This document shows, one piece after another, positions 4,731-58,946 of a stretch of 64,000 nt of DNA. The first letter of the stretch is position 1. Every line of letters begins with the position of its first letter. Below the pieces are notes generated by a model. That model saw only the letters and a list, made by a program, of their open reading frames with translations. It was not told where the DNA came from and did not search any database. The stretch is from a virus (Duplodnaviria; Caudoviricetes): the IMG/VR virus record IMGVR_UViG_3300044658_000165, positions 3,622 through 67,621 of that record; one strand, written 5' to 3'. The position numbers and the translations under genes are program-made.

Positions 4731-4731
4731 A

Positions 4732-15164: not shown

Positions 15165-15228
15165 ATGCTAATAGGCCCTGGCCTATAGTGATGCAAAGAA
15201 CCATGGTGAAGCGAAATAATAATTTACA

Positions 15229-15250
15229 GGCCCAGGCAATCGGGCTTTTT
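15229..15250 (+). terminator. intrinsic terminator
   Basis: GCCC-AGGCAATC-GGGC-TTTTT. Confidence 0.55.
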
Positions 15251-15638
15251 ATCTCTACTTAAATATTGCTTATGTCGTATTATCAGGGGCCGAATTGGCT
15301 TGCTTTCCTTATGATTTTAATACTTCTTCTCTGTCTGATTTTCTGTTAACCTAGATTGAAATAAAAGGTATCTTCTACATTTAAAATATCGAGCATCGAG
15401 TATAAATACTTTTCAAATTCAGTATTTTATGAAACTAGCACCGTAAAAACACCTATTTTGCAAAATTTTGTGGTTTAAAGTCTACAATTTTTGTCAGTTT
15501 TCTGCTAACTTGCCACTGTAAAGTTACCAATACCTTGAAACTCCTCTCTTAGTATTTGAATCCCAACCAATTGCGTTTTTATTGCATTTTTCCGATAACA
15601 TTTGCATCAAAATTGCGTTATATAAGTAAAGGCTGAAA

Positions 15639-18923: not shown

Positions 18924-19196
18924 ATGAAAGATCCGCGATTTGAAACGGTAAAAAAACTTTTTGAATTTGGCCAGATTAAATCCTTCAAGGACATAATTAC
19001 TCATATTCCAGTCAGCACATTGCGCCAGGTAATCCATACCAATCATTATCGCATGACGCGCATAGTAAATAATCCCTCAGAGCTTCAATATGATGAAGTA
19101 GCCGCTTTGGCCAGAGAGATCGGCGTTGAACACCGCGTAATTTCAGAGATGATTGAAAGAGAAATCAAAGCGAATCGAAAGAAGAACGCCAATTAA
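18924..19196 (+). CDS. HTH-like protein, paralog B
   Basis: ATG at 18924; G.IKS..D....P and A....V...VI..M shared with paralog A. Confidence 0.7.
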   Translation: MKDPRFETVKKLFEFGQIKSFKDIITHIPVSTLRQVIHTNHYRMTRIVNNPSELQYDEVAALAREIGVEHRVISEMIEREIKANRKKNAN

Positions 19197-20128
19197 TGCA
19201 CTACTTCCGCCGGCGCCTTGTCCGGGTGGAGTCGCAGAAAAGAAGCATGCCGTAGTTCACCGGCTTTGGTAATCTCCAGATATTTAATTGAACAGACCAA
19301 TTCTGGCCGGCACCAAGCCATAAACGCAGGCGCCTTTCTGCCCCAGCGGCCGCCTTTCAGAACGGGAATTTTTGCCAGTGGGCATCTTTTCACCACCTTT
19401 ATACTGGCCAATATTTGCATTAACTCTCGAGCATTCCACCCGGTTCCCACCTCTCCTAAGTAAACCAGTAGGTTCTTTTCGTAAGCAGCCAACAACAATG
19501 AGTTGATAACAGCAGGACCGTTTTGGCTTGTATAACCGACAATGATCGCATCCCTTTCTTTGTATGTTTTGAACTTCTGCCACTCTTTGCTTCGTATTCC
19601 GGGTTTATATAAAGAATCTGCTTTTTTTGCTATGATACCTTCAAGGCCATTCCTGGTTGCCATACGAAAAGCAGCTTCACCATGCATTGGTATATGTGTG
19701 ACAAAGCGCACTTCGTGGGATGGGCGAAGGAGTTTTTCCAAAGTAGACTTTCTTTTTACTACTGGTAACTTCATAAAGTCCCGTCCTTTGAAATACAAAA
19801 GATCAAAAACGTAGTAAACCAATAGGCCATCTGCATCCGTTTTCCAGTTTATTAACGCCTCAAAATCGCTTACCCCAGCATTATTTATAACAACAATCTC
19901 GCCATCGAGGATCATATCAGCTTTGTATCGTTTTAATGTATCGACTATCGGCCGGAACCTGGTTGTATAGTCTGCGTTTTTCCTTGATTTTAGCCGCACC
20001 ACTCCCTTTGTGATATAACCTAAGATGCGGAACCCATCGTACTTGATTTCAAATATCCAGTCTTTGTTATTGAATGGCTTATCAACGAGTGTGGCCAGCA
20101 TGGGCTTTATGTTACTGGGCATGGTCAT
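19193..20128 (-). CDS. ligD: ATP-dependent DNA ligase (LigD-type ligase domain only)
   Basis: WIFEIKYDGFR, LDGEIV, VFDLLY, EGIIAKK, WQKFK, ELRHASF. Confidence 0.92.
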   Translation of the reverse strand: MTMPSNIKPMLATLVDKPFNNKDWIFEIKYDGFRILGYITKGVVRLKSRKNADYTTRFRPIVDTLKRYKADMILDGEIVVINNAGVSDFEALINWKTDADGLLVYYVFDLLYFKGRDFMKLPVVKRKSTLEKLLRPSHEVRFVTHIPMHGEAAFRMATRNGLEGIIAKKADSLYKPGIRSKEWQKFKTYKERDAIIVGYTSQNGPAVINSLLLAAYEKNLLVYLGEVGTGWNARELMQILASIKVVKRCPLAKIPVLKGGRWGRKAPAFMAWCRPELVCSIKYLEITKAGELRHASFLRLHPDKAPAEVVH

Positions 20129-24825: not shown

Positions 24826-24827
24826 AA

Positions 24828-25310
24828 TTAATAGGGGATTCGTATAAATGCTTTGATGGTAGAGTTTTTTCGACAAAGAGCGCCGGACCGATGGGCTACC
24901 TCATATCCATTCCTGCTGCCTTCATCATTACTGTTTCCTTCTATTGTTTCGCAGGTAAGATCAAATCCTTTAAGTACAAATCCAGTATGCCCTTTTCCGC
25001 CGCCGAAATCCATAATGAAAATGTCTCCCGGCATTGGTGAATGATAAATCCATTCTGGGTGATTCTGTTTTACCCAACTAAAGAGATCCATCACACTGGC
25101 AGTAGTTTTGAGTGGAAACTTAACGCCCATTTTTTCGCAGGCCTGCTTTAGACACCACATTACGAATGCCATGCACCAAAACTGAGGAGGCTCGAGACCT
25201 ACCGCTGCGAGATATTTTTTTACATGCGGGCCGTTATTGCTGTTAATGGGAATTTCTTGGTTTCCTATTTCGCCCGTCGCAATTTCGAGGGCTTTTTCAC
25301 GTAACGTCAT
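24828..25310 (-). CDS. CHAP-domain endolysin
   Basis: SNNGPHVKKY, FWCMAFVMWC, GHTGFV, TIEGNS. Confidence 0.9.
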   Translation of the reverse strand: MTLREKALEIATGEIGNQEIPINSNNGPHVKKYLAAVGLEPPQFWCMAFVMWCLKQACEKMGVKFPLKTTASVMDLFSWVKQNHPEWIYHSPMPGDIFIMDFGGGKGHTGFVLKGFDLTCETIEGNSNDEGSRNGYEVAHRSGALCRKNSTIKAFIRIPY

Positions 25311-27386: not shown

Positions 27387-30290
27387 TTAAGGAGCTGGAC
27401 TATAATCTACATACCACATCTGCGCAGTTATATCGCTACTTCCACCGCCGGCGCCCCCTGCCTGCCCGGTTATTTTCAGAATATTCCCGGTTGTGAAATC
27501 CAGACCGGTTAAATTCGATGTAGTCTTATACGATTCCTTAGCCGCATTGTCAACAGATATCGTTACGAAAGATCTTGCCGTTGTGCTACTTGTTCTTATA
27601 ATAACTCCTTCTATTGTCCACACCCCTGTCGCTGATATGGTTAAGGCACCAGTGCCACCAATACCATTACCAGCGAACAAGGCCTGAAGATCAACAGTAG
27701 CCATGGCATCATTAGTTGTGCCGGACGCTTTAAAATGAAGCCTTGTGCCATCCGCAGCAAGCGTTAACCCCGCTATGCTTTTGGTATATAAATCAGTCTG
27801 AGAAGTACCGGTGTTATTAGCATCTGTGTATTGCGCATCTATCGTGCGCTTAAACACGCTGCTCGTCGGGTCAACATTATATGCTAAAGTGTTTCCTCCT
27901 CCCGGATTTGTTACGTATGTCGCAACTCCCCCAGATAGCGTTATCGCCGGTCCAGTATGGCTGTTGATAGATGTTATACCACCACCTGATGATCCGGTTA
28001 TTTTAAATGTACCTGTCGCTGCATCCCTATAAACAAACCCTCCTGTAGCTGTGGCTGAGCTATCCGCTTTTGCTATGATCTTTAGATTAGGCATGTATAA
28101 GGCAGTATCTTGAACGGTTGCTTTTTTTGTCCCTGCAATAAAGAAATCATGAACACCGCCAGAAAACACGTGATATTCCAGGTGGCCGAATGAAAGCCCA
28201 AGGCCCGCACGCGCGGATCCATCATTGTACACATAGTACTTTAACTTACTGTCATCGCCTGCTGTGTTCGCATAAGTACCGCCGGCATCAAAGCTCTGAG
28301 GGGTAGCCGTTGATGCCCCACTATTATTAACACCGAGTAATAATTTTGTATCGTTTATAGTTGCAGCGGGGGTCGAGGCGCCGTTAATCTTAAATGTGAA
28401 CTTTGCGCCACTCCCACCGGCATGCAAGTAAAAGTTCTGCGCACTTACACCTATCCCATATCGTGTATTGGTAGATCCATCATCATAAAAGACCATTTTC
28501 ATTTTATCAATATCCTCACTCACTGAACTATAGGAGCCTCCTTGATTAATCTGTAGAGGTGTAGTGGTGGAAAGCGATTTCCTTGTCCCCTGTTGGATGT
28601 TCTCAATTGCGCCTATGTACCTGCTAACATCCCATTCTATGAATGCATGCCCGGCATCATTAGCATGTACATTATCGCCGGTTATTAAAGTAGTGTCATT
28701 TCGCAACTGATCGTTATAGATGTTAAAGTAAAGGGTTCCCCATTTCGTGGCCGTCTCTTGTGTAGCCTGAACGAAATCAAGATGCCGTTGATACGTTGGT
28801 GCTGCATTGCCGCTTGCTGAGGCATATGCATTATAGCCAGCTTGACCTATCCAGTAAGGTGGGATGATAAGAATTTCATATGGCGCCCAACCCTTGTTGG
28901 CGCAATAATGCATAACACTATCGTAATCCGTCTTGAAGTTCGCTACTGTATATGCTGCTGCGGTTTGCCCAAGATCATTGAGGCCAAATGCAAAAATTAA
29001 TAACCTTCGATTGAATGTTTTTGTGGGAACAGTTGATAGTCTATCAATCATATTCGTGCCCCCATTCCAATCGACAGGAGTGCGTTTCATTAATGTGCTG
29101 CCCGGAATACCGTAATTCACTTCTACAGCACCCATGCGATAAGCTACTAATGTTGTCCACCGATACCCTGATGTTGCGCCGCTTCCATACGTATAACTGT
29201 CCCCGAAAAAATAGATACTGTCGCCTTGATTAAATCGTGAATTATTATGTAATAATGGGTACTGATTCAATGCATTTACTATAGAACTATCTTTAAGGAT
29301 TACTGACGAGACTCTTATCGCTGTCGCTGTGTCGTTCAAATCGGATTGCGTCACCAGGTGATTGCCGCTCGAAGTATCAGCTTTAAAAGTAATCCCGTCT
29401 GTATTGCTACTACTATCTGCCGATAGACCATAACCAGCGAATAATGTTTTTAACTGGCCCACTGCTGTTTTAACAAGTCGATACCCGCTGCCAGCGTTGG
29501 AGAGAGTTGAAGATGTGCCGCGAATGGTGATCGTGTCTGTATTAATTCTAAATGAGCTATCATTAATTTGAGCAACAACGCCATTGGCTGCAAAAGTGCC
29601 TCTACCCTTCTGATCAAAAGTGACGGTTGCAAGCTTATAGGTACCTGGAGTGATTGAGGTTGGCGACAAAACAAAATTGGCCAGACCTGGGCCTGTAGCG
29701 GCACCATCCCCATTAAGACCAGTTATATAATTACCCGAAGGCTGTTTTCCGTCAATCCTATTACTTAATGATGTAGTATCTGAATACTTCATCCGCTGAT
29801 CAATCCGGTTGCTGAGAGATGCAGTATCAGATTTCCGTAGGTAGATGGCGAGCATGGCAGCTGTATCTGAATATTTTACACGCTGGTCAATTCTGTTACT
29901 CAATGAGGCCGTATCGTTTTTCCTCAGGTAAGGATATAACATCAGCAATGTATCGGAATATTTAACCCGAACGTCAATACGTGCTGACAATGAAGTAGTA
30001 TCGAGTGCGGAGCCTCCTTTTGCACCACCTTTAATAACAACGGTATCTCCTCCAACTATAATCGTGGAATCATTCAGCACAGTAGTCTTTTTAAAAGCGG
30101 TTCGTCCTCCTCCAATATTATACAATACGCCCCCTTTTTGGGATACGCTACCGGCGTTTGAAATAATTAGCTCACCATTACCCCCAGTCTTTTCTATATA
30201 TACAGAATCACCGCGTATATAATATCTGCTTTGGGAATAACCAATCGCGGTAACAAAAAGGAATGTCAATAAAAAAATAAGTCGTTTCAT
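27387..30290 (-). CDS. tail fibre/spike-like protein with SGNH hydrolase domain and N-terminal signal peptide
   Basis: FGDSYT, GIPGS, GLND, DNVH SGNH blocks; TPGTY...VTFDQKGR fibre motif; DT.SLS.RID repeats; MKRLIFLLTFLFVTAIGYS-Q. Confidence 0.8.
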   Translation of the reverse strand: MKRLIFLLTFLFVTAIGYSQSRYYIRGDSVYIEKTGGNGELIISNAGSVSQKGGVLYNIGGGRTAFKKTTVLNDSTIIVGGDTVVIKGGAKGGSALDTTSLSARIDVRVKYSDTLLMLYPYLRKNDTASLSNRIDQRVKYSDTAAMLAIYLRKSDTASLSNRIDQRMKYSDTTSLSNRIDGKQPSGNYITGLNGDGAATGPGLANFVLSPTSITPGTYKLATVTFDQKGRGTFAANGVVAQINDSSFRINTDTITIRGTSSTLSNAGSGYRLVKTAVGQLKTLFAGYGLSADSSSNTDGITFKADTSSGNHLVTQSDLNDTATAIRVSSVILKDSSIVNALNQYPLLHNNSRFNQGDSIYFFGDSYTYGSGATSGYRWTTLVAYRMGAVEVNYGIPGSTLMKRTPVDWNGGTNMIDRLSTVPTKTFNRRLLIFAFGLNDLGQTAAAYTVANFKTDYDSVMHYCANKGWAPYEILIIPPYWIGQAGYNAYASASGNAAPTYQRHLDFVQATQETATKWGTLYFNIYNDQLRNDTTLITGDNVHANDAGHAFIEWDVSRYIGAIENIQQGTRKSLSTTTPLQINQGGSYSSVSEDIDKMKMVFYDDGSTNTRYGIGVSAQNFYLHAGGSGAKFTFKINGASTPAATINDTKLLLGVNNSGASTATPQSFDAGGTYANTAGDDSKLKYYVYNDGSARAGLGLSFGHLEYHVFSGGVHDFFIAGTKKATVQDTALYMPNLKIIAKADSSATATGGFVYRDAATGTFKITGSSGGGITSINSHTGPAITLSGGVATYVTNPGGGNTLAYNVDPTSSVFKRTIDAQYTDANNTGTSQTDLYTKSIAGLTLAADGTRLHFKASGTTNDAMATVDLQALFAGNGIGGTGALTISATGVWTIEGVIIRTSSTTARSFVTISVDNAAKESYKTTSNLTGLDFTTGNILKITGQAGGAGGGSSDITAQMWYVDYSPAP
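29750..30005 (-). repeat. intragenic repeats encoding DTxSLSxRID(xRxKYSDT)
   Basis: Four copies in the translation; three at a 30-aa period. Confidence 0.85.
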
Positions 30291-30294: not shown

Positions 30295-30597
30295 TTACGA
30301 TATAATTAAACGGCCAGTTGAAAGGCCACCGAGATCAATGGAATAACTCGTCGTTGTTGTCGGATCATCAGGTATGATCTCGCAGTTAATCTGGCGATAC
30401 TTGCCATCACTACCCTGAATCTCCACATAGATCACAGCCGCATCGCCAAACCTGTTCTTACGGGTGTTATCCCAGGGTAAGGTGATAGTGGCAACATTTG
30501 AAAAAGGAATGACCTCATTCTTCCCTGAAGCATCCGGATTAACGGGATCAGGTGTGATTATTTGATCGAGACAGCATTGACCTATTAGAAATGGCAC
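30295..30597 (-). CDS. virion-associated protein, paralog of the adaptor C-terminal domain
   Basis: IPF.NV..I..PW...RK.RFG and GR.IIS shared with 30913-31842. Confidence 0.75.
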   Translation of the reverse strand: MPFLIGQCCLDQIITPDPVNPDASGKNEVIPFSNVATITLPWDNTRKNRFGDAAVIYVEIQGSDGKYRQINCEIIPDDPTTTTSYSIDLGGLSTGRLIIS

Positions 30598-30607: not shown

Positions 30608-30634
30608 TAAATATAAATGTCGTATTTTACGACA
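30608..30634 (-). promoter_or_regulatory. putative late promoter/operator
   Basis: TGTCGTAAAATACGACA, 2 nt, TATATTTA on the minus strand. Confidence 0.7.
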
Positions 30635-30649: not shown

Positions 30650-30913
30650 TTACCAGCGATTATCCGGGCACTTTTCATGCAGCACCAACGCCTTCTCGTT
30701 AACAGGACAACCGCATATTCCACACCCAATACCACTTCCCTGTTTGTCATTATGCAAAGCTCCATCAATGAACTTCTTCAACCATTGTTCTTTGGCGTGC
30801 GGACATTCAATACAGATGGAAACCCGCTTCCTGGCCAATTCCTTGTTTTCCTCGCTGACCTCAATGAGACCCAGCGACTTCACCCATCCCTCATATATAT
30901 GCTTTAAATTCAT
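30650..30913 (-). CDS. Cys-rich (CxxC) small protein
   Basis: RVSICIECP, CGICGCP, KCPDNRW. Confidence 0.75.
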   Translation of the reverse strand: MNLKHIYEGWVKSLGLIEVSEENKELARKRVSICIECPHAKEQWLKKFIDGALHNDKQGSGIGCGICGCPVNEKALVLHEKCPDNRW

Positions 30914-31842
30914 TACGATATAATTACCCGTCCAGCTTCTACAGGCCCAGCCAGGTTGATCAAATAATAAGTTGTATTATCAATGCTATCAGGGCTCGCT
31001 TGCACTGCTACGGCTTGGTAGCCTGTTCCATTCCATATCTCAACAGTAAATGAGGCGCCAGCGCCAAACCTTGATTTGCGATTGGAATTCCAAGGAATGA
31101 GAATCTGATCAACGTTTCCAAAAGGAATCGTTTCATTTCGGCCAGCTATAACAGGAATAACAGGAACAGTTTCTTCACAACATTTTTTCTTATCATCATC
31201 ATATAATCCGAATATCACACCACTCATCTTCTTTGTACGTGATTCACCACAACCGCAATCCCGGGTATAACCTGGATATCGTATAGAGCACATGTAGCTG
31301 TGGAGATCGTCGATTAAGGGTGTGATCCTTTCCTGCAATCCTTTATCTAAAAGGTGCTTCAGGTCCTTCAGATCAATGGTTACAGATTCCTGATTCTGAC
31401 CGATGGTCTCCGGGAAGTTTTTAATGACGCCTTGGGCGCCAAACCGGGCCCGGTTTACAGGCAGGGCGCAAAACCAGACACATTCTGCCACGATCTTATG
31501 CAGATAATTCAGCCAGAGATCCTGCTGCTGTTCATTAAGATAGGTATCAGAATTAACATAATCGCCGACATTAAGTATAATGGGCTGACGATCAGCTGGG
31601 CGATTGGCATTTACTATATCCTGTAGTTCATCCTTATTTGAGGACGTAACAAGTAAATTTTTATTATCAATAATCAGGTTATAGATGCCAACCCCTAGCA
31701 ATGGTTTTATAAACCTGCGCTCAGCAATTATTATATTGTTTAAAATAATTCTTGGATCAACCGTGTTATCAGTAGGGGCATGAAAGATTACCTCGTCTGT
31801 TGTAACAAGTACTTTTGTCTTTAATGGATTTACTCCTATCAT
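30913..31842 (-). CDS. head-tail adaptor-like protein with extra C-terminal domain
   Basis: AERRFIKPLLG..IYN pattern of Bacteroidota adaptors; follows portal. Confidence 0.6.
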   Translation of the reverse strand: MIGVNPLKTKVLVTTDEVIFHAPTDNTVDPRIILNNIIIAERRFIKPLLGVGIYNLIIDNKNLLVTSSNKDELQDIVNANRPADRQPIILNVGDYVNSDTYLNEQQQDLWLNYLHKIVAECVWFCALPVNRARFGAQGVIKNFPETIGQNQESVTIDLKDLKHLLDKGLQERITPLIDDLHSYMCSIRYPGYTRDCGCGESRTKKMSGVIFGLYDDDKKKCCEETVPVIPVIAGRNETIPFGNVDQILIPWNSNRKSRFGAGASFTVEIWNGTGYQAVAVQASPDSIDNTTYYLINLAGPVEAGRVIIS

Positions 31843-34142: not shown

Positions 34143-35162
34143 TTATGCAGGCAGAGCCAAACAACTGTGCTCAGGCAGCGCGATCTGAGTACCACCTTTT
34201 AAGGCGGTTCTCCATTTCCAAGTATCATCATAGTAATCATACCAAACCACCAAAGCTTCATTGCCATCAGGACCAGTACCATACGATTGATCGGTACCGA
34301 ATACAAAGTTTCCGCGCAGTGTCAGTACGCCGAAGTGTGCACCGTTGCCAACAACCTGATTAAGAACCGGATTAAAAAATGGATTCACGAAAATGGGAAT
34401 GCCTTTGTAAGCGCGGCCTTTGATGCCGTTGATAGTGAAGTTCGCAGCTTCATTGCTTCCCTGACCAGAGGCAACCAGGTAAGCCTCGTATGCGTCACTC
34501 CACTTCTTATCAATGTAGAACGCCTTGTCAGTATCGAGCATGACATTCATCAATGAATCCTGATTAGAATATAAGTTCTCCAGGTACACCTGTGCATTTG
34601 AAGCTGAGATATTACCAGCGGGGATATTGAAGGTTTGACCGCCTGGTATAACACCAGCAGTCACATATTTTTTATACTGGGTGAAGATCCCGTCAAACTG
34701 ATTTACGTTGAAGTCGTTCGGATCACTGTTGGCTGCCGCACTTTCATCACCGAAATACATCAACGTCATGAGGTCGGTGGCAATCCCATTCTTGAAGTAG
34801 TTTACGATACCATCAAGGAAGGCCGGATCACCATTGCGCCAGTCTTTCAAACAACCCTGATAGAACTCTTCACGGCACATCTTCACACCAGCGGCTAACT
34901 CGGTCACAACAATTTTCCGCAAGCCAGCCTTTGCGATTGGTTGGTATTCCATGCTACAGCTGGCATCACGGCGCCGCAAAATGTTCTGAAGCCTGCGAAT
35001 GTCTATGATCTTCCTTTCGTGAGCTACATCGTTCATTACGATGAACTCGCCGAAGTAACCGTTGCGAACATCCATTCCATCTACCAGATCACCAAAGGAC
35101 GGCTTCAGGATCAATTCATAGAATTGAGGACCATTTATGCTGACACGTTTGAAAGCGGGCAT
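34143..35162 (-). CDS. major capsid protein
   Basis: 339 aa after the protease; CREEFY, FDGIF, YKGIPI, LVVWYDY; HK97-like layout. Confidence 0.8.
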   Translation of the reverse strand: MPAFKRVSINGPQFYELILKPSFGDLVDGMDVRNGYFGEFIVMNDVAHERKIIDIRRLQNILRRRDASCSMEYQPIAKAGLRKIVVTELAAGVKMCREEFYQGCLKDWRNGDPAFLDGIVNYFKNGIATDLMTLMYFGDESAAANSDPNDFNVNQFDGIFTQYKKYVTAGVIPGGQTFNIPAGNISASNAQVYLENLYSNQDSLMNVMLDTDKAFYIDKKWSDAYEAYLVASGQGSNEAANFTINGIKGRAYKGIPIFVNPFFNPVLNQVVGNGAHFGVLTLRGNFVFGTDQSYGTGPDGNEALVVWYDYYDDTWKWRTALKGGTQIALPEHSCLALPA

Positions 35163-35219: not shown

Positions 35220-35654
35220 TTATGATTCATCATCATCATCAACATTGCTGATAATAATACCGGTATGATCGCGGTCCCAGCTGGCCAGGCTACCAGAAGA
35301 AGGGAGCGCCATCCCGATCAGGCCATAATGACCATCGCTTATGCAACCATCATCCGACACAACAGTAGCACGCAATTCCAAACCTTCTGAGGCATCCAGA
35401 CTGGCAATGCTCACGGTTACTGCATCGTCACCATCTGCAGCAGCAATGTTCCCATCGACTGTTTTTCCATTCTTGTCAGTGACGCGCAGGTTTACAATTT
35501 TGCGATCGGCACCATTGGGATAAGTGGATCCATCGGTAAACACGATAGTTTTGGCGCCAGAATCATAAATGAATGAAACTGCTGCAGCAAAACCAGTACA
35601 ATTGCAACCACCGCATAGGCCGTCAACAAGATTTTTATTGTCGAATGAGTTCAT
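35220..35654 (-). CDS. putative capsid decoration protein
   Basis: Beta-rich Ig-like composition, between protease and capsid. Confidence 0.5.
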   Translation of the reverse strand: MNSFDNKNLVDGLCGGCNCTGFAAAVSFIYDSGAKTIVFTDGSTYPNGADRKIVNLRVTDKNGKTVDGNIAAADGDDAVTVSIASLDASEGLELRATVVSDDGCISDGHYGLIGMALPSSGSLASWDRDHTGIIISNVDDDDES

Positions 35655-47166: not shown

Positions 47167-47658
47167 TTAGAAAAAAGTTTGGTCGAAGGTTTTATCGATG
47201 AATTGATCGAGCTCATTGCTCACGCCGGTTTCCAACAGCTGGTCGTATTCACTCTCATGTTTATTGTAAGCCTCCACATTGGCGAATAACCGCTCGCCGG
47301 TAGAACTATACTGGTATGAATTCTTTGTCGGCATACCCTCTTTGGACTGTTTACGAAGAATAGCTATCGCTGCTTTAATGGCCGCCTTACCCGAAAGACC
47401 GAAGCGCTTCTCGGCGTACTTTGTCATCCCGGCGATATTTGATTGATCGATGTGTTCCGGTGGTACGCCCTCAAATAGATCATCCGCATAATCCAGGGCA
47501 CCCATTTCGATTATTGATGTATTGCCTGACGTGGTTTGTTTGGAAACAATAGAGGCCTCCAGCGCACCGGTCAGGTAGTGGCCCTGGGCGCGGAGCTCCT
47601 GCTTCAGGTTACCCTCGAGTTCGATTTCAATTCGTTTTATGGTGGCGTCGCCGATCAT
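47167..47658 (-). CDS. neck protein (HK97 gp10-like)
   Basis: TGALEASI motif, 163 aa. Confidence 0.55.
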   Translation of the reverse strand: MIGDATIKRIEIELEGNLKQELRAQGHYLTGALEASIVSKQTTSGNTSIIEMGALDYADDLFEGVPPEHIDQSNIAGMTKYAEKRFGLSGKAAIKAAIAILRKQSKEGMPTKNSYQYSSTGERLFANVEAYNKHESEYDQLLETGVSNELDQFIDKTFDQTFF

Positions 47659-48068
47659 GAATGAATGGGTTCAATTTCCAAAATAGTGGATTGAAAATAT
47701 TCACGAACCTTTTCCCAATCAACAAAAGGACGCTCACCATTCTCATAAATTAAAGGTGTACCAAGGCCTGCATCATCAATATATAGGTGGGCGTAAACCT
47801 TTGAGGAAGATGTCCAGCTCTTTTGATTTGGATTGCAGTTAATTCCATATAAATTAATTCCCCGTTCAACAAACCAGTTAACTGCATCAGTTAAAAAATT
47901 ACCTTTCGGGCCATCACTACGCATAGTATTTAACACCAGTTTAAATCCAGCATTTTGCAGTGCTTTTAAAACAGTTATACAGTTAGGTACTTCATCACCT
48001 ATCTGAGGGAACCGATGTTTTACAACAGTACCATCGAAATCGACAGCTATAACATAATTTTCTTTCAT
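47655..48068 (-). CDS. HAD-superfamily phosphatase
   Basis: IAVDFDGT, LNTMR, KVYAHLYIDD. Confidence 0.85.
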   Translation of the reverse strand: MKENYVIAVDFDGTVVKHRFPQIGDEVPNCITVLKALQNAGFKLVLNTMRSDGPKGNFLTDAVNWFVERGINLYGINCNPNQKSWTSSSKVYAHLYIDDAGLGTPLIYENGERPFVDWEKVREYFQSTILEIEPIHS

Positions 48069-51296: not shown

Positions 51297-51402
51297 TGAT
51301 GTGAGGGATTTATTTGATTATAAAGGTAATCGTAATTTGAGACTTTTATATTTAATTTACGACATTTGAAGCCGAAACCATTTTTAACAAACTCTCATCA
51401 TC

Positions 51403-51714
51403 ATGAAAGGATTTATTGCACTACTGCTTTTTGCAGCTTTCGGGTGTGGGACATTTGCTTCGTACGCCGCGGATGTTGGCAGCAAGGCAAGAACGGAACT
51501 GGTGAAGAAGTCTCATGATCTGGTAGCCGTTGAGGTTAACCAGGTGATCGAGGTTGAGGCGCCAGCTGTTCAGCGTATCTGCTTTATAACCGGTGAAGTA
51601 AATGTAAAAGCAATCAGCCGGCCGAAGGAAGCCGTTGCCAATGCACCCCCATTAATCGTCTTGGAGCAGTCACCACAGGAAAGCCACCGTATAAGGCGGC
51701 TGACGGGTCAATAA
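51403..51714 (+). CDS. secreted hypothetical protein
   Basis: Signal peptide MKGFIALLLFAAFGCGTFASYA. Confidence 0.7.
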   Translation: MKGFIALLLFAAFGCGTFASYAADVGSKARTELVKKSHDLVAVEVNQVIEVEAPAVQRICFITGEVNVKAISRPKEAVANAPPLIVLEQSPQESHRIRRLTGQ

Positions 51715-51737
51715 AACACAAAGGATTAAGTAGATTG

Positions 51738-51764
51738 AGCCTTGCAGAAATGCAGGGCTTTCTT
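51738..51764 (+). terminator. intrinsic terminator
   Basis: GCCTTGCA-GAAA-TGCAGGGC-TTTCTTT. Confidence 0.7.
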
Positions 51765-51788
51765 TATCTTGGTGGAAACGAATGCCAT

Positions 51789-52295
51789 ATGGGTATAATG
51801 CTTGACCTGAATTCTTTGCCAAATAATAAAGCAATTGCTATAGTATTGATAGTTACGATAACAGTACTTGGCCCTTTTCTTTATATTTATAATTTTTCCC
51901 CGCTGGCATTTTCTAAATACAATATACCCACCTTACTTCTTCTTTCAACCTCATGTGGGTTACCAATTATAGTATTTAATACGTTATCAATTTATTATGG
52001 CCTTGATCGAGAATACAGCAAAGAATCGTATTGGCCGTCTATTGGAATTCTTTCATCGATAGTATCTATGATCGTTATTTATACGCCTATAGGTTACAAC
52101 ATGGGAAAGTCTTTGCCTATAACAAAAGCCCTTAGGTTCTCATTTATCCTTCAGGTCTGGTTCACCGCAATATTTTCTATAACGACCCTTTATTTTTTAA
52201 TTAAAAGACGCAAGACTCAAACTTCTAATACCCCAGCTGCCCCAGCAGATCCTCTTCCTCCCAATCCTCTTCCTCAGACTCAGAGTGGTACTTAA
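51789..52295 (+). CDS. AT-rich 4-TM membrane protein (moron)
   Basis: Four hydrophobic segments; convergent with and overlapping the terL 3' end. Confidence 0.7.
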   Translation: MGIMLDLNSLPNNKAIAIVLIVTITVLGPFLYIYNFSPLAFSKYNIPTLLLLSTSCGLPIIVFNTLSIYYGLDREYSKESYWPSIGILSSIVSMIVIYTPIGYNMGKSLPITKALRFSFILQVWFTAIFSITTLYFLIKRRKTQTSNTPAAPADPLPPNPLPQTQSGT

Positions 52296-53772
52296 AGCCG
52301 GTTGAGCTGTGCCGTTGAATACATTGTGAAAGAACGTCAGCCAAGTCCATAAACTTACCATTAGGAAACTTCAGGATGCCCTGCAGCTTATCATCGAAAA
52401 ACTTGTCGGCTATACTCTTACGCACACAGACCATACCCGCCTCAGCAGTTGGTGAGGCCATCCGGGCCCGGGCAACTTTATCCTCCCCACCCTTTACAGG
52501 AATTTCAATCGCAACAATACCCGCTTTTGATAATGTTTGCTGGGCAGAAATCCCGGCAGCCTTTGCTTCAATATAATGGCTGGCCTGTTTGGTTTTCATC
52601 CACCTGATGAGCTCAGGAAACTCCTTCCACGCCCAATCCAGATCATCCAGGAATATTTTGTTATTATACTTAAAGCTGGTAATGTATGCCGATGCCGCGT
52701 TCTTCTTCTTTTTCGTGTACGCAAGGTCCCAATCGCTGCCCAGGCCTTCGCCCAGGTTCTTGTTCGGCATATATTCATCGGGCACAATCGTAAACCACTC
52801 CCTTTTCCATATCTCACCATTGGCAGGGGCAGGTTCCTGATCCCATTGCCCTGCATAACCATAGGTACCTAAATCAATAGTCGCCTCCTGGATAACACCC
52901 AATCCATTACGCTGAGGATCCAGTACTCCCAGGCGAGTGGTTTTGTATCGTTTGGCCAGCGGATGAGTATCAGGTACGTCAATGTAGGTGTATATGCTGC
53001 GATACTTGGCCGGTTTCACGCAATCAGGATCGACATCAACCGCAATACCAGGTAGTTTGATATGCCGGATCATTTTCTCCTTCTTATCGAGCAGTGTGCC
53101 GGTTGGATCGGCCTCATGTAGCCGCTGCATGATGAGGTAGGTAACTGTAACTTCCTTATTGGTTTTACGGCTGGGTAATGTCTGGCTGAAGAAATCATTT
53201 GCCTTTGTCCGTTCTGCATCCGATTTGGCACCCGCCGGATCGATAGGGTCATCCACCTTCAGGATGTCAGCATGTTTAGAAGTCAGCGTACCGCCTACTG
53301 TAAACGCGTAAAACTCACCATTAGCCTCGGTAAGGAAGTTGTGAGACGTGTCCTTATCCTTGCTTATAACCACATCAGGAAACCACAGCTGGTATTTTTC
53401 AGACTTCATCACCTTGCGGATGGCCAGGGCGATACCAGTAATGGCCATATCTGAATATGAGCCCACGAAAACCTTTATCGAAGGCTTCATGGCGAATTCC
53501 CAACAGGTAGAAAGAACGGAAACAATCTTTGTTTTACTGGTGCCGGGCGGCACATTGATAATTACATCATATTTCTTTGGCTGGCGAACAAATACACGCC
53601 CATCGGCTTCTTCAATCTCATCGCACATCACCTGCATGTGTGGGGTCCATACAAGCGGATCATCGACAATTATGGGCCAGAATTCCTTTACAAAGAAAGC
53701 AAGGCCACCAGGTTTACGACAACGGGCGCCACCTGCCTTGTTTATATTTATGCGGAGCTTTTTATCACTCAT
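52225..53772 (-). CDS. terL: terminase large subunit
   Basis: IINVPPGTSKT Walker A, VDDP Walker B, IMQRLHEAD, GQWDQEP, DWDLA, DLADVLSQ. Confidence 0.93.
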   Translation of the reverse strand: MSDKKLRININKAGGARCRKPGGLAFFVKEFWPIIVDDPLVWTPHMQVMCDEIEEADGRVFVRQPKKYDVIINVPPGTSKTKIVSVLSTCWEFAMKPSIKVFVGSYSDMAITGIALAIRKVMKSEKYQLWFPDVVISKDKDTSHNFLTEANGEFYAFTVGGTLTSKHADILKVDDPIDPAGAKSDAERTKANDFFSQTLPSRKTNKEVTVTYLIMQRLHEADPTGTLLDKKEKMIRHIKLPGIAVDVDPDCVKPAKYRSIYTYIDVPDTHPLAKRYKTTRLGVLDPQRNGLGVIQEATIDLGTYGYAGQWDQEPAPANGEIWKREWFTIVPDEYMPNKNLGEGLGSDWDLAYTKKKKNAASAYITSFKYNNKIFLDDLDWAWKEFPELIRWMKTKQASHYIEAKAAGISAQQTLSKAGIVAIEIPVKGGEDKVARARMASPTAEAGMVCVRKSIADKFFDDKLQGILKFPNGKFMDLADVLSQCIQRHSSTGFKYHSESEEEDWEEEDLLGQLGY

Positions 53773-54256
53773 CTGACTTTTTGCGGGCGTTCAATATCGC
53801 ATCTAATACTTCAGTTGGGAGGCTGTCATAATCAATTTCATCATTCTTATGCTGATGCTTGATCGGTCCGCCACCCTGGCCAGATAGTTCGCCAGAAAAC
53901 CGGTCTTTGTATCTCTCAGGCAGGTTGCCTTTAAGGAGTAATACCATAAGTGTGTCGGAATATTCGCGGATGGTGCCAACTTTTTTGCCTCCCTGAAATA
54001 CTGGTTTTAATATACCCTCGTGTGCCCGGCGAACGGCTTCATCTTCAAGCGCATCGGCAGCGATTATCCGGGATTTTTGGAAATCCTTCTCGAACTCTTC
54101 ATCCTTTTCTCGCCAATCGTAAACAGTGCGGCGTGGAATCTTTGCCAGTTTACAGGCGCGACGTACCGAAGCGGTTTCTTCCATCGCCTTTAAAAAATCC
54201 TTTTTCTTTTTTGATAGGCTTCTCTTGTCTACGTTATGTGCAATGGTGCGCGGCAT
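53765..54256 (-). CDS. terS: terminase small subunit
   Basis: HTH SVRRACKLAKIPRRTVYDWR, LEDEAVRRA, YSDTLMVLLLKG..PERY. Confidence 0.88.
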   Translation of the reverse strand: MPRTIAHNVDKRSLSKKKKDFLKAMEETASVRRACKLAKIPRRTVYDWREKDEEFEKDFQKSRIIAADALEDEAVRRAHEGILKPVFQGGKKVGTIREYSDTLMVLLLKGNLPERYKDRFSGELSGQGGGPIKHQHKNDEIDYDSLPTEVLDAILNARKKSDE

Positions 54257-54292
54257 TATTGGGGATATCTTCTACACAAAGTTATCGTAAAT

Positions 54293-54323
54293 TACATATA
54301 ATTGTCGTAAAATACGACATTTG
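54293..54323. promoter_or_regulatory. divergent terS / glyco-operon control element
   Basis: TGTCGTAAAATACGACA at 54303-54319; minus side 2 nt then TATATGTA; plus side GACATTTG. Confidence 0.7.
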
Positions 54324-54330
54324 CAGGTCA

Positions 54331-55032
54331 ATGGATATAGTTATCCCCTACCGACACAGCGCCAGCAATGGCCTTGAGCTACGCTACACACTACGTGGAA
54401 TTGAAAAGTTCTTTCCTGACCTGGAAAACATATTCATAATCGGGGACTGCCCTGAGTTTGTTGACAATATTATCCATATTCCAGCCAAAGATGCTCCGGA
54501 ACGCCATTTAAAAGCGAGAAATATAATGAGTAAACTTTGGATCGCTTGCGAAGACAAACGAGTGAGTGATACATTCGCTATGTTCAACGATGACCATTTT
54601 CTTTTAAAACCTTATAATCATTCATATCATTATTCACAGTACCTACAATATTCAGTGGCATCCTATACAGTGCATCAAACGTATAGAAACACCTTAAATA
54701 ACACCATGGCTTATTTGAATGGTGGTAAAAACTTTGATACCCATTGTCCAATTATTTTCAATAAGGAACTTTTTGTAAGAACAGTTACCACAGCGGACTG
54801 GTCTAAACCTTGGGGTTATGGGATCAAGTCACTTTACTGTAATATGGCAGGCATTGAGGGGGAATATTATCCTGATTTGAAAATCAAATCTCCATTCCCA
54901 AAAGATCGGATTGTAAACGACTTGTTAGCTGGTCGCCCTTATTTCTCCATTGATGACCGTGGCCTGAATGATGCTATGAAGGAAGTCTTACAGGAATTAT
55001 ACCCCCCAAAAAGCATATATGAATCTCACTGA
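54331..55032 (+). CDS. Stealth-like sugar-phosphotransferase/glycosyltransferase (233 aa)
   Basis: MDIVIPY, ELRYTLRGIEKF, NIFIIG, FAMFNDDHF, THCP; resembles Stealth CR1-CR3. Confidence 0.7.
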   Translation: MDIVIPYRHSASNGLELRYTLRGIEKFFPDLENIFIIGDCPEFVDNIIHIPAKDAPERHLKARNIMSKLWIACEDKRVSDTFAMFNDDHFLLKPYNHSYHYSQYLQYSVASYTVHQTYRNTLNNTMAYLNGGKNFDTHCPIIFNKELFVRTVTTADWSKPWGYGIKSLYCNMAGIEGEYYPDLKIKSPFPKDRIVNDLLAGRPYFSIDDRGLNDAMKEVLQELYPPKSIYESH

Positions 55033-55651
55033 ACTCGCTCTCAAACATGGATCGGACAAAGCTGGTCACCACAACTACACGCCGATATACGAAAAGTATT
55101 TTGCCCCTTTCCGGGACCAACCGATAACATTATTGGAGCTGGGTATTGGTGGTTATGAGTTCCCCGATCGTGGCGGCGCCAGCCTGAAAATGTGGTATGA
55201 GTATTTTCCCAAAGCTGATATCGTTGGCATAGACCTTCATTCAAAAACCGGCTTATCGAATGAAAGAACATGGGTATATAAAGCAAGTCAAACCGATCAT
55301 ATCTTCCTGGAAGGTTTATTGAAGGCCCACGGTAATCCCAATATCATTATCGATGACGCCAGCCACATAAATAAACTGACCATTCAATCCTTCGTAATCC
55401 TTTTTCCTCTCCTGGCGCCAGGCGGCATATATGTGGTGGAAGATATCGAAAGTTCCTGGGCGCCACTCCACAGCTGGGCAATGGGATGCGATAATTATAA
55501 AGACCTGAATGAATATTGTACAGTTAATTTCTTCCGCCGGCTGGTTGATGAAATGAATGGCCAATACATCCCTCATTATGAAACCTGGGGCTTCCCTGAA
55601 ATCGACTCCATCCATTTTTACAAAAACATCATTTTCATACAAAAGAAATAA
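55019..55651 (+). CDS. class I SAM O-methyltransferase (MycE/TylE-like)
   Basis: HGSDK...HNYT..YE, LLELGIGGY, GGASLKMW..YFP, IIIDDASH, GGIYVVEDI. Confidence 0.82.
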   Translation: MNLTELALKHGSDKAGHHNYTPIYEKYFAPFRDQPITLLELGIGGYEFPDRGGASLKMWYEYFPKADIVGIDLHSKTGLSNERTWVYKASQTDHIFLEGLLKAHGNPNIIIDDASHINKLTIQSFVILFPLLAPGGIYVVEDIESSWAPLHSWAMGCDNYKDLNEYCTVNFFRRLVDEMNGQYIPHYETWGFPEIDSIHFYKNIIFIQKK

Positions 55652-55654
55652 AGC

Positions 55655-57814
55655 ATGTTGACTTTTTCCCGCCTCGGCAGAATGGGTAATCTGGGAAACC
55701 AGTTGTTCGAGATCGCCAGCACTATCGGTCTTGCTGCCAAACATGGCCATGATTACCAATTTCCAGAATGGGCATATCAAAAATTTTTTATAGGGCCGAT
55801 TCCTACAGGGCAATTACCTGGTACGCCTGTATTAAATGAACAACTATATCATAACCACGACTGGCCGATAAAACGTGGCGAGAATTATGACCTCAAAGGC
55901 TGGTTGCAATCAGAAAAGTACTGGGAAAACGTTGAACCGCAGATCAGAAAGCTGTTTACCTTCCAGGAAGAGTTAGCCGCAGGTGTCCGCAACCGGTTTG
56001 CCGCTGCTTTTAAAAAACCAACAATTGCAATTTCCATCCGCCGCGGTGATTATGTCGATAATCCAAACTACGAGCTGCTACCGGTTACATATTATATTCA
56101 GGCTCTCCTTCATCACTTCCCGAATTGGCAGGACTACAATATTATTTTCTTCAGCGATGACCTACCCTATTGCCGGATTCACTTTGAATGCCTTCAAAAT
56201 GCCTGGTTCACTGATGGCCTGAACGCGATTGAGCAGCTATGCCTAATGAGCATGTGCAACCACTTTATTATTGCCAACAGCACATTCAGCTGGTGGGGCG
56301 CTTACCTGGGTGAGAAAGAGGAAACCAAGATTATCCGGCCGGCATACCTCTTCGCCGGGCCGTTGCTGGCGAAGAACGACGCAAAGGACTTTTATCCCGA
56401 TCGATGGATCTCTTTCGATCATAAGCAGCAGAAGCTGGACCTGCGCGATGTAACTTTCACTATTCCGGTATTCCACGATCATACCGACCGGCGCCAGAAC
56501 CTGGATTTATCCGTATGCATGCTGCAACGCGATTTCGATACCAACGTAATTGTTGGCGAGCAGGGTAGCAATCAGTTCGGTTACATGGCCCAATGGTCAA
56601 AGTATGTGCGGTTCGATGATATGAAGGACTTCCACCGCACAAAGATGTTGAATGATATGGCGATGACGGCTGAAACTCCAATTATAGTGAACTGGGACTG
56701 CGATGTATTCGTGCCACCGATGCAAGTATGGTTGGCTGTCGAAGCAATCCGCAATGGCCAGGATATGGTATATCCATACGATGGTCGGTTCGCCCGGGTG
56801 CCGCGCACCTGGTTCAAAAAGATGGAACACCATCTGGATATCGGGATTTTCGGCGATACCGAATTCACCGGCAAGAAAGGGAAGCCGATGCCGGTTTCAT
56901 CGGTCGGCGGCGCCATCTTTTTTGACAAATCAGCGTTCATCGACGGGGGGATGGAAAACGAAAAGATGATAAGCTATGGTCCCGAAGATTGCGAACGCTG
57001 GGATCGGTTCCATGCCCTGGGCTTTAAGGTAACCCGGATTCAGGGCACACTTTACCACTTGGATCACTTTATCGGTCCGAACAGCTCGAGCCGGTGCCCC
57101 TACTTTAAAGCCAACCATAACGAGCTGGCCAAAATTCGGGCAATGAAACCGGAAAGGTTGCGCGAGTATGTCGATTCCTGGCCATGGCGCCACATGTACA
57201 CCGAACGGTACTACAACCGGATATCGGAATCCGCGATCGCGTCGGCTCGGCAAGTGTTTTCAGCCCTGGCGTTGGAAGGAATAAAGCCGGAATCAGTAAT
57301 CGATATCGGTTGTGGTGTCGGTGAATGGGGTAAGGATGCGCCTTTCAAATACATCGGTGTTGATTATCGGGTGCCGAAACGGTCTCTGGTTATTCCGGAG
57401 GATCGGTATTATGATTACGATCTTACGAGCGGAAAGCCTTTCCCTGCCGGTAAGTTTGACCTGGTGCTATGTATGGAAGTACTCGAGCATATCCCTGAGC
57501 AGTACGCAGATCAGGTAATTAGTCTATTATGTAGTCTGGGAGACTGGGTGCTTTTCAGCGCGGCCATTCCCTACCAGGGCGGAGTAGGGCATGTAAATGA
57601 ACAGTGGCAGAGCTATTGGGCGCAAAAGTTTGCCGCCAATGGCTTTTACCAATCCAGGATTAAAATGCGGGATCTCATTAATGATTACCCTTTAATCGAT
57701 ATCTGGTACCGGCAGAACGCTGTTTTGTATGAACGGAATGGTGAGGGCGGTCTGGTTACCTGCTATGTGCACCCGGGGATGTATCTGAATGTGGTGAAAA
57801 GTTTGGCTAAATAG
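55655..57814 (+). CDS. fusion of GT11 alpha-1,2-fucosyltransferase-like, GT7C/GT2-like and SAM methyltransferase domains
   Basis: GNLGNQLF, IRRGDY, FSDD, ANSTFSWWGAYL; WDCD, GGAIFF, YGPEDCE; IDIGCG, CMEVLEH, FSAA...GHVNEQ. Confidence 0.88.
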   Translation: MLTFSRLGRMGNLGNQLFEIASTIGLAAKHGHDYQFPEWAYQKFFIGPIPTGQLPGTPVLNEQLYHNHDWPIKRGENYDLKGWLQSEKYWENVEPQIRKLFTFQEELAAGVRNRFAAAFKKPTIAISIRRGDYVDNPNYELLPVTYYIQALLHHFPNWQDYNIIFFSDDLPYCRIHFECLQNAWFTDGLNAIEQLCLMSMCNHFIIANSTFSWWGAYLGEKEETKIIRPAYLFAGPLLAKNDAKDFYPDRWISFDHKQQKLDLRDVTFTIPVFHDHTDRRQNLDLSVCMLQRDFDTNVIVGEQGSNQFGYMAQWSKYVRFDDMKDFHRTKMLNDMAMTAETPIIVNWDCDVFVPPMQVWLAVEAIRNGQDMVYPYDGRFARVPRTWFKKMEHHLDIGIFGDTEFTGKKGKPMPVSSVGGAIFFDKSAFIDGGMENEKMISYGPEDCERWDRFHALGFKVTRIQGTLYHLDHFIGPNSSSRCPYFKANHNELAKIRAMKPERLREYVDSWPWRHMYTERYYNRISESAIASARQVFSALALEGIKPESVIDIGCGVGEWGKDAPFKYIGVDYRVPKRSLVIPEDRYYDYDLTSGKPFPAGKFDLVLCMEVLEHIPEQYADQVISLLCSLGDWVLFSAAIPYQGGVGHVNEQWQSYWAQKFAANGFYQSRIKMRDLINDYPLIDIWYRQNAVLYERNGEGGLVTCYVHPGMYLNVVKSLAK

Positions 57815-57858
57815 TACAATGGGCACATTAAAACGTATAATATGTTAAGGGGTTCCAA

Positions 57859-57886
57859 ATGCTGGCTTCGGTCGGCATTTTTATTT
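57859..57886 (+). terminator. terminator of the glyco-operon
   Basis: ATGCTGGC-TTCG-GTCGGCAT-TTTTATTT. Confidence 0.75.
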
Positions 57887-58233
57887 AAAAACAACTCGTC
57901 AGAAGTTATACACAAAAAAAATTAAAAGTGTGAATTTTAGCAAAAACAAGCCCCTATTGAATTTCATGACATTTAGAGCTACATATACACAGGTGTGTTT
58001 ATTTAATTCAAGGAAAGTTTTTGAATTTCCTGGAGCTTTGAAAAAGCAGAATGGGTTAGTGGCTGATAAGGCATTTATATTACAAGTTTTCCCCAAATTA
58101 ACTTATTCAGGGGGTGTGGATATAAATTCCTCCAAAAGTGCGGGTTTAATGGACCTTTGAGAAGTAGTTTTGTTAGATCACCCGGGTTAATGATATGGAC
58201 TGGTTTGCGCCAGTTTTGATATGTGTGGCTTCC

Positions 58234-58416
58234 AAAAAAAACGCCGAATGGTTAAGGCCCATTCAGCGGCTCAGTAAGGCACTGAGTATTTTGAAACCTT
58301 ACGTAGAAATAACTGTTTTGATTTGGATTGCACTCCATAACAGGTAAAACCTACGTTCTACAGAATGCCGATCGCTAGCAACGGTCGGCTTCTTTTTTCG
58401 TATTACGCCGTGTAAT
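58234..58416 (-). ncRNA. candidate multi-hairpin small RNA
   Basis: Perfect TATATTTG at 58430-58423; several stems; ends CGCTGAATGG-GCCTTAA-CCATTCGGCG-T8. Confidence 0.55.
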
Positions 58417-58715
58417 ACGCCACAAATATAACTACGGGCGCCTAACTTTCGCGGATTTCCGCGCCGAAACCCGCCGATATTAATTCACAAATGTTTAAAA
58501 AAACGACGTTTCCCTCGATTTGTCGTTTTCAATTCCTTAAGACACAACAAATAAACTACTGACTTTCATTTATTTATAACCGTTTCTGATTTAACCGGAA
58601 TTTACGGCCGGAAACCGCCATTTATCGCGGAGAAGACCGGCGCTCCCGGCGGATTCAGCGGCGCCGCGCCGCAAAGTCTTTAAGCGGATTCCCGCTTACC
58701 TGCAGGTAAACCTGT

Positions 58716-58946
58716 TTATTTCAAAAGGGAATTACTCACCTTATGAAGCTGCGCAAACATCTTCCCCTGCTGCTTCTGATCATTAGCAGGAAACTGGTTC
58801 CACAGCGGAGTGCTCAGCCAAACCTCGTTTGTATCGATATTCCATATGCCGGCATGCTCATGGCCGTTCAATTCCGGCTTATGGTGGATGACAACGGTAA
58901 CCGGTTCGGTAAGACCTTTGGGTATGAAGATGATAGTGCGGCGCAT
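58716..58946 (-). CDS. hypothetical protein
   Basis: Likely start MRRTIIFIPKG. Confidence 0.55.
   Translation of the reverse strand: MRRTIIFIPKGLTEPVTVVIHHKPELNGHEHAGIWNIDTNEVWLSTPLWNQFPANDQKQQGKMFAQLHKVSNSLLK

Follow-up and report, generated by a model that had tools for sequence, protein, structure and literature searches.

A putative glycan-building cassette beside the terminase genes of a Bacteroidota phage: a candidate for virion glycosylation

In mycobacteriophages, capsid and tail-tube subunits are reported to carry glycans at their C-termini (PMC12619734), and gp38 of Corndog has been reported to be essential for capsid glycosylation (PMC12363180). In chlorovirus PBCV-1, A064R, a fusion of two glycosyltransferases (GTs) and a methyltransferase, builds the glycan of the major capsid protein (PMC7826918). 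The subject of the present analysis is a cassette of three predicted sugar-modifying genes lying next to the terminase genes terS and terL in a stretch of 64,000 nucleotides (the window), which spans positions 3,622 to 67,621 of the IMG/VR virus record IMGVR_UViG_3300044658_000165. No description of this cassette family was found in the literature searched, relative to which the family is undescribed. Judged from its genes and from those of its relatives, the cassette may well glycosylate the virion proteins of the phage itself; this reading is held tentatively, with slightly less than even confidence.

The cassette is the sole sizeable plus-strand unit in the virion and replication region from 22 to 64 kb. 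Its parts and the adjoining terminase genes are as follows:

52225–53772, minus strand, terL (phrog_38, E 2.7e-63)
53765–54256, minus strand, terS (phrog_4044, E 1.5e-36), divergent from the cassette
54257–54330, divergent intergenic region between terS and the cassette, 74 bp
54331–55032, plus strand, gene 1 (P0003, 233 aa), short Stealth-family protein, phrog_7999
55019–55651, plus strand, gene 2 (P0001, 210 aa), MycE/TylE-type metal-dependent sugar O-methyltransferase, catalytic domain only, phrog_21658
55655–57814, plus strand, gene 3 (P0002, 719 aa), fusion protein with Pfam and PHROG matches
57857–57880, plus strand, terminator-like hairpin closing the cassette, with a 10-pair stem followed by a T-rich run

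Genes 1 and 2 overlap by 14 bp, and genes 2 and 3 are separated by 3 bp. The first-pass annotation of this DNA had described three overlapping or adjacent plus-strand genes beside terS with a terminator of their own and without signal peptides or transmembrane (TM) helices. The coordinates agree, with a gap of 74 bp, and the hairpin at 57857–57880 with its T-rich run fits the terminator. All three proteins are predicted to be soluble (no signal peptide, no real TM helix), as their hydropathy maxima fall in Rossmann-fold core strands. A domain search and TM check of the cassette revealed no flippase, polymerase or polyprenyl-phosphate priming transferase.

Gene 1 is predicted to be a hexose-1-phosphate transferase. 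The profile of its family (19 homologues) matched GlcNAc-1-phosphotransferase (GNPTAB) at 2.9e-11 and CpsY at 1.6e-6 in the PDB, and its AlphaFold2 model (predicted local distance difference test, pLDDT, 95.9) retrieved CpsY (8j2n, 1.7e-10) as the best Foldseek match, with GNPTAB next. Residues D87, D88 and H138 are invariant or almost so among the homologues. Homology in the catalytic region and the fold place the protein in the Stealth family, of which the four conserved regions are covered in part only. When it is compared with described members (GNPTAB, Mycobacterium tuberculosis CpsY and the capsule polymerases), profile and fold agree over the catalytic core, but gene 1 differs in its length of only 233 aa, in the lack of accessory domains and in a sub-threshold single-sequence score against Pfam Stealth CR2 (32.8 bits, cut-off 39.4).

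Gene 2 matched MycE (3ssm, 4.2e-35 over residues 2–209) and TylE (8ia9, 7.7e-34) by phmmer. The metal-binding and catalytic DDxSH and ED motifs are conserved and aligned with those of MycE, which assigns gene 2 to this family; the N-terminal auxiliary domain of MycE is missing. Gene 3 consists of a GT11 domain (residues 1–253), a GT7-like GT-A domain (261–509) and a class I S-adenosylmethionine-dependent methyltransferase domain (about 530–660). The GT11 assignment is supported by Pfam (PF01531, E 9e-23, 81.3 bits against a cut-off of 23.9) and by R129, R130 and D132 of the RRxD motif, and Pfam also gave a match to Methyltransf_23. The catalytic motifs of all three domains (RRxD, NWDxD and DxGxGxG) are invariant across 36 homologues. 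The central domain scored 21.7 bits with Glyco_transf_7C (PF02709), just short of the cut-off of 23, and its profile matched K4CP (1e-5) and beta4GalT1 (9e-4). The model of this domain (pLDDT 94) was closest in fold to K4CP, ppGalNAc-T2 and beta4GalT1. The GT-A fold and the invariant NWDxD place it as a GT7-like GT-A enzyme, an assignment that does not imply a finer CAZy family. It also contains FHRTKMLN, comparable to the FNRAKLLN motif of beta4GalT. The Pfam, profile and fold evidence agrees with the identities first proposed for the three products (Stealth-like, MycE-like and GT11-GT7C-methyltransferase fusion).

The three genes would form a self-contained cytoplasmic cassette for building a glycan. 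By family chemistry, the GT7-like GT-A domain would add a beta-linked hexose or N-acetylhexosamine (HexNAc), and the GT11 domain would put an alpha-1,2-linked 6-deoxyhexose of the fucose type onto that sugar; the 'fucosylated' glycan of the first-pass annotation would follow from GT11 membership alone. The fused methyltransferase and the MycE-like enzyme would O-methylate sugars, and the Stealth-like enzyme would attach a sugar via a phosphodiester. The expected product is an O-methylated hexose with an alpha-1,2 deoxyhexose, plus a phosphodiester-linked sugar. Its targets would be the phage's own virion proteins, as in Che8, Corndog and PBCV-1, and a capped, methylated glycan on progeny particles would mask or stabilize their surface. 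In this lineage, the cassette would have been inverted from the common co-oriented layout and would have its own promoter region and terminator.

Related gene neighbourhoods were surveyed for linkage to terS, as proposed in the first-pass annotation. Contexts were drawn from IMG/VR, GTDB contigs and GenBank phages only; ORFs (open reading frames) on 80 IMG/VR loci were clustered, and the clusters were labelled from PHROG and Pfam searches of their representatives. A head or packaging gene was identified in the locus in 48 of 69 distinct architectures, and the nearest one lay downstream in 42 of these 48. A terS, terL, portal or protease gene lay at most three genes away in 30 of the 69 architectures and was co-oriented in 29 of the 30. 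On contigs of at least 30 kb, a terminase, portal or protease gene lay no more than 4 kb from the cassette in 13 of 32 cases, always co-oriented with it. This proportion exceeds a generous null of 25% (p 0.04) and is a lower bound, because the labelling of head genes is partial. Several cassettes are embedded among such genes, in the orders terS-Stealth-GT-terL (L016), terL..GT..portal (L014) and portal-methyltransferase-methyltransferase-GT-x-protease (L059). Others stand directly upstream of terS, terL or portal, and the flanking terL and portal genes come from many unrelated families. In larger phages, the genes sit in bigger sugar islands. Linkage to head genes is frequent, not universal. 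In line with the mycobacteriophage type of system, in which soluble phage-encoded GTs and a methyltransferase are linked to virion morphogenesis genes, the present cassette adjoins terS and terL, and in many relatives it is co-oriented with head operons or embedded in them. The cassette in the window is inverted with respect to most relatives, including one with the same terL family (L030).

A second line of evidence comes from the C-termini of capsid proteins. Single capsid proteins were scanned, the divergence in the capsid alignment (A4) being too great for a search by pattern; the comparison concerned a siphophage lineage with one capsid family, and a second capsid family was also looked at. 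Capsid proteins ending in Gly-Ser were found in five of nine cassette-bearing relatives and in none of 21 cassette-free relatives with enough upstream sequence (Fisher p 0.0009, uncorrected for phylogeny). The four cassette-bearing capsids without this ending terminate in ...EATS, ...QSSV, ...QGSI and ...AATT. The Gly-Ser tail was likewise absent from about ten relatives of the second capsid family. The endings in question, with those of cultured phages, are:

L055, cassette-bearing, capsid 6042–7331, ...DSGS
L158, cassette-bearing, FkbM and Stealth variant, capsid 10001–11308 (32% identical to that of L055), ...DSGS
L016, cassette-bearing, capsid 8557–9846, ...GEGS
L052 and L079, cassette-bearing, capsids 14338–15585 and 3452–4702, ...TPGS
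Che8 (L201), validated, capsid gp6 ...TGS and major tail (tube) gp11 ...DGS
Corndog (L105), validated, capsid gp41 ...VGS
Boilgate (L202), with Stealth-like gp3, capsid gp10 ...GSGS
L5, control with no known virion glycosylation, neither capsid nor major tail protein ending in GS

The association of the cassette with Gly-Ser ends, together with the C-terminal glycans reported in mycobacteriophages, supports capsid glycosylation in the family. A C-terminal Gly-Ser may serve virion glycosylation as a portable acceptor tag. A further link to a validated system is the alignment of the gene 3 GT-A profile with Corndog gp37 (hhalign probability 92.6%, E 4.5e-7, 183 columns), which points to remote homology. 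Comparisons of P0001 with Corndog gp35, and of the GT-A domain with gp36 and gp38, showed no similarity.

Support for virion glycosylation lies at the level of the family, through head-gene linkage, remote homology to gp37 and Gly-Ser tails; the arguments specific to the window are weak. Several observations weigh against it. Because hallmark genes are over-represented on short IMG/VR contigs, the figure of 30/69 is inflated. For 17 of the 32 architectures on long contigs, no head or packaging gene was identified at a distance of up to 10 kb from the cassette, and in a further two the nearest lies 4.7–5.7 kb away, although annotation of these negatives is incomplete and some of the contigs are truncated. 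The fold matches of the gene 3 GT-A domain do not discriminate within the GT2/GT7/GT27 group. Among the real ORFs of the window, none has a Gly-Ser end, and the capsid candidate terminates in ...LALPA. The arrangement of the cassette, which runs on the opposite strand and has a promoter region and terminator to itself, is moron-like. The phage also encodes an integrase, so expression of the cassette in the lysogen is possible. Finally, the related GT11/GT-A genes of T4-like cyanophages lie in sugar-metabolism islands by nucleotide-sugar epimerase genes, not by head genes.

The absence of Gly-Ser, the inversion, the terminator, the integrase and the position in a slot occupied by defence genes in a relative (L006) together make lysogenic expression and remodelling of host glycans a serious rival, though a less probable one than virion glycosylation. 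Soluble enzymes at the cytoplasmic face would act on lipid-linked precursors of lipopolysaccharide (LPS), exopolysaccharide (EPS) or the Bacteroidota general O-glycan, and a methylated deoxyhexose-hexose cap would alter receptors for other phages, leading to lysogenic conversion or superinfection exclusion. Peripheral cytoplasmic GTs that act on units linked to undecaprenyl pyrophosphate need no TM segment, which counts in favour of this explanation, as does the reading of the epimerase-linked cyanomyophage homologues by their authors as cell-surface modification genes. It is harder to reconcile with a fusion that stays about 50% identical across phages assigned to very different phyla, whose surface glycans differ, with the many relatives in which the cassette is co-oriented with or inside head operons, which would be transcribed late, and with the way in which its presence tracks capsid C-termini. 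Gtr-type membrane components, a flippase and an acetyltransferase are also missing.

An acceptor outside both virion and cell surface, such as a non-virion phage protein, a host cytoplasmic protein, a small molecule or a lipid, in the service of host takeover or counter-defence, is improbable. MycE and TylE do act on small-molecule glycosides, the acceptor is not readable from sequence and this phage lacks a Gly-Ser tail; against this, capping methylations in a cassette of several enzymes point to a structural glycan, and the head-gene linkage and the correlation with capsid tails would be left unexplained. Least probable by far is glycosylation of modified phage-DNA bases as a shield against restriction, with expression around the time of packaging. 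Phage GTs that attach varied glycans to DNA are known (Pyle et al. 2024, cited in PMC12619734), and DNA-modification genes are often found near terS, where L006 has a DNA methylase. DNA glycosylation is nevertheless unlikely because no hydroxymethylase of the thymidylate-synthase type (PF00303) was found in the 67.6-kb record, while control genomes were positive, and because the phage has C5 and N6/N4 DNA methyltransferases instead. MycE-type O-methyltransferases and GT11 enzymes act on sugar acceptors, and Stealth enzymes have no known role on DNA.

Glycosylation of virion proteins had originally been coupled to late expression on two grounds, of which neither is secure. Divergence from terS is no evidence for late coupling, since the slot ahead of terS is also a hot spot for accessory and defence genes. 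In L006 (2768–7250; terL 44% identical), this slot holds an opposite-strand OLD-family ATPase/TOPRIM nuclease; a DNA methylase with a GmrSD-like N-terminal domain occupies the same slot. The other ground was a 17-bp palindrome said to lie upstream of the head and fibre genes. The palindrome, TGTCGTAAAATACGACA, lies at 54303–54319 in the gap between terS and the cassette and has one other exact copy in the window, at 30618–30634 (minus strand); 0.12 copies would be expected. The claim holds for the fibre-like unit and fails for the head genes. As a common 'head and fibre' late operator, the palindrome was rejected: it has two copies only, none at head genes, and it is not conserved in L088, the syntenic relative from a metagenome-assembled genome (MAG) of Niastella.

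A shorter core, TACGACATTT, occurs exactly three times in the window (54313, plus; 51358, plus; 30615, minus), each time just upstream of a gene and in the right orientation, namely the cassette, a plus-strand unit at 51.4 kb and the fibre-like unit at 30.6 kb. At the cassette, the core TACGACATTTG stands 9 nt before the ATG. The other two sites are:

30615–30634, minus strand, second palindrome copy with TTT, upstream of the small ORF 30295–30597 and the GDSL fibre-like gene
51358–51367, plus strand, core TACGACATTT(G) in its third copy, preceding the small plus-strand unit 51403–52295 by about 35 nt

The palindrome and core in 54257–54330 are a candidate promoter or operator, and TACGACATTT is a candidate phage promoter or operator core. 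It resembles a Bacteroidota -7 element (TAnnTTTG) in which another base takes the place of the first T. Of the palindrome, L088 keeps just the right half, TTTACGACATTTGCA, at the cassette, and its core site at 51 kb has diverged. Co-regulation of the cassette with a virion unit through TACGACATTT is possible (n = 3).

The window covers most of the 67.6-kb record, which CheckV rates as 100% complete and which reads as phage throughout. Its other features are:

264–8614, DNA C5 and N6/N4 methyltransferases, RecT-like protein and SMC-like ATPase
9282 and 10299, two tRNA genes
16402–17646, integrase
19193–20128, ATP-dependent ligase
about 22–54 kb, minus strand, long virion block ending in terL and terS; it includes genes for a fibre of the beta-helix/PA14 type, a GDSL-esterase protein of 967 aa, a prohead protease resembling ClpP, the capsid candidate and a protein of 1,696 aa that contains a minor-tail domain
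22522–24876, minus strand, fibre-like protein with G8, beta-helix and PA14 domains
27387–30290, minus strand, 967-aa GDSL/SGNH-esterase fibre-like gene
30295–30597, minus strand, small ORF before the GDSL fibre-like gene
34143–35162, minus strand, candidate major capsid protein (P0123), coming after the ClpP-like protease and ending in ...LALPA
35220–35654, minus strand, Ig-like protein of 144 aa between the protease and capsid genes, with the acidic tail ...DDDDES
59–64 kb, minus strand, genes for replication, a resolvase and a DnaB-like helicase among them

The Atlas structure neighbours of P0123 include Phage_capsid clusters at template-modelling (TM) scores of 0.73–0.83, an HK97-like match that serves as a lead only, and the capsid alignment A4 showed no relation to this protein. 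The 35220–35654 product has Ig-like structural neighbours at a TM score of about 0.5, again a lead only. As an acceptor of the glycan, this Ig-like protein is speculative; five of the 25 listed minus-strand ORFs between 22.5 and 54.3 kb (virion genes with terS and terL) end in Ser, this one among them. The two carbohydrate-active fibre-like proteins suggest that the phage probably recognizes and de-acylates or degrades a host surface polysaccharide. The neighbouring minus-strand ORFs 30295–30597 (...GGLSTGRLIIS) and 30913–31842 (...AGPVEAGRVIIS) have similar C-termini, which suggests a shared C-terminal module. A BT0820-type HAD phosphatase lies inside the virion block (47655–48068, minus strand, 137 aa; NF046079, E 2.8e-24). 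Its PHROG label is 'phosphoheptose isomerase'. Five further loci with the cassette encode homologues (cluster 30), and a part in sugar-phosphate metabolism serving the cassette is possible. The C5 cytosine methyltransferase adjoins an 852-aa N6/N4 methyltransferase (264–4189, minus strand), and the phage DNA appears to be protected by methylation. Between the cassette and the next genes, about 0.8 kb (57900–58740) lacks a convincing ORF and contains strong terminator-like hairpins on both strands (58268–58242, minus; 58367–58389, plus). An Rfam search of this gap from 57.9 to 58.7 kb gave no match.

The closest match in the genome collection is a contig from a Niastella (Chitinophagaceae) MAG with the same layout, in which the Stealth, MycE-like and fusion genes (67, 70 and 84% identity) lie on the strand opposite to terL and terS. 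This relative agrees with the earlier assignment to a Bacteroidota phage and supports a Chitinophagaceae-like host. The source samples were soil and rhizosphere metagenomes. A metagenome scan with terL returned short or unrelated contigs only, and the contig of L005, with a terL 84% identical, ends just upstream of terL. When the locus was searched by blastn against GenBank phages, the only match was one of 65 nt in a cyanophage GT gene.

The fusion family comprises 1,189 proteins at E<=1e-10, and the best 120 of these 1,189 are full length with 49–84% identity. In about half of the IMG/VR loci, the GT form has 500–530 aa and lacks the methyltransferase domain, and a Methyltransf_23 gene of its own often lies alongside; this domain fusion and fission argues for functional coupling. 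Accessory genes in roughly 80 loci were a MycE-like methyltransferase (25 loci), a Stealth-like gene (18), a weak Glyphos_transf-like gene (14), an FkbM methyltransferase (12) and a GT25 gene (12). The MAG labels of homologue contigs include Bacteroidota, Saccharibacteria and Woesebacteria, and source names add Anaerolineales and Casimicrobiaceae. This spread of phyla weakly favours an acceptor that is carried along with the phage, the binning of viral contigs being unreliable. GIY-YIG/NUMOD3 homing-endonuclease genes adjoin the GT gene in L031, L032, L034, L053 and L070–L072 (cluster 17) and are a possible vehicle for movement of the cassette. In the larger phage contigs L044, L062 and L069, a GroEL-like chaperonin gene (phrog_5725, E 1e-125; cluster 82) lies four to five genes downstream of the cassette.

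A broader proposal can be put forward, though it is more doubtful than probable: a mobile GT11 and GT7-like cassette, with or without the methyltransferase and often with Stealth, would decorate the capsids of tailed phages across many phyla. Gly-Ser would be a portable capsid and tail-tube tag, and the phage in the window, having inverted its cassette, would use another acceptor, for example the Ig-like protein ending in ...DDDDES. If this is true, virion glycosylation is not peculiar to actinobacteriophages, and glycan coats are common in soil and aquatic phages, with consequences for adsorption, for the stability of the particles, for how grazers and immune systems recognize them, and for phage engineering. 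The Gly-Ser tail would then allow a simple and testable prediction, from sequence, of the phages that are glycosylated and of the site. Being compact, the fusion enzyme is also a candidate tool for making a methyl-capped Fuc-Gal-type unit in the cytoplasm. Should the host surface prove to be the target, the cassette would represent a new, soluble type of lysogenic conversion in Bacteroidota.

Among the known systems, serotype-converting prophages (GtrABC, Oac) resemble the present case in that a temperate phage carries sugar-modifying genes as an independently transcribed unit. However, their products are integral-membrane proteins at the periplasmic face, whereas the cassette proteins are soluble and include no flippase-type component; neither TM helices nor domains of an integral-membrane transferase or flippase were found in the cassette. 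The best homologues in cultured phages occur in T4-like cyanomyophages (S-SCSM1, S-H68, P-TIM68 and others), which match residues 1–520 of gene 3 at 28–34% identity. There, the GT11 and GT-A parts are two adjacent genes (phrog_2644 and phrog_15655) without a fused methyltransferase, and the authors of the cyanophage work read them, without tests, as genes for host-surface or DNA modification.

PBCV-1 A064R, and likewise A111/114R, resembles gene 3 in that one soluble polypeptide, which builds a capped glycan, carries two GTs and a C-terminal sugar O-methyltransferase. It differs in belonging to a eukaryotic giant virus and in having rhamnosyltransferases, not GT11 and GT7-like domains. No sequence match to A064R was seen in the PDB searches, and the resemblance is best regarded as an architectural analogy. 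Cultured-phage homologues of the Stealth-like gene were found in actinobacteriophages only, among them Boilgate gp3, two genes upstream of the terminase and portal genes. The cassette is distinguished from the mycobacteriophage systems by its GT11, Stealth and MycE-type components, its tri-domain fusion, its Bacteroidota host, its inverted position and the lack of a Gly-Ser tail in the window. Like the cassette, virion glycosylation in Corndog, Che8 and Myrna (Freeman et al. 2023, as cited in PMC12363180 and PMC12619734) involves a methyltransferase and several soluble phage-encoded GTs, and the layout of the cassette family matches that of Corndog gp35–38, where a methyltransferase, a GT, a 'galactosyl transferase' and a further GT lie between head genes and the capsid gene gp41.

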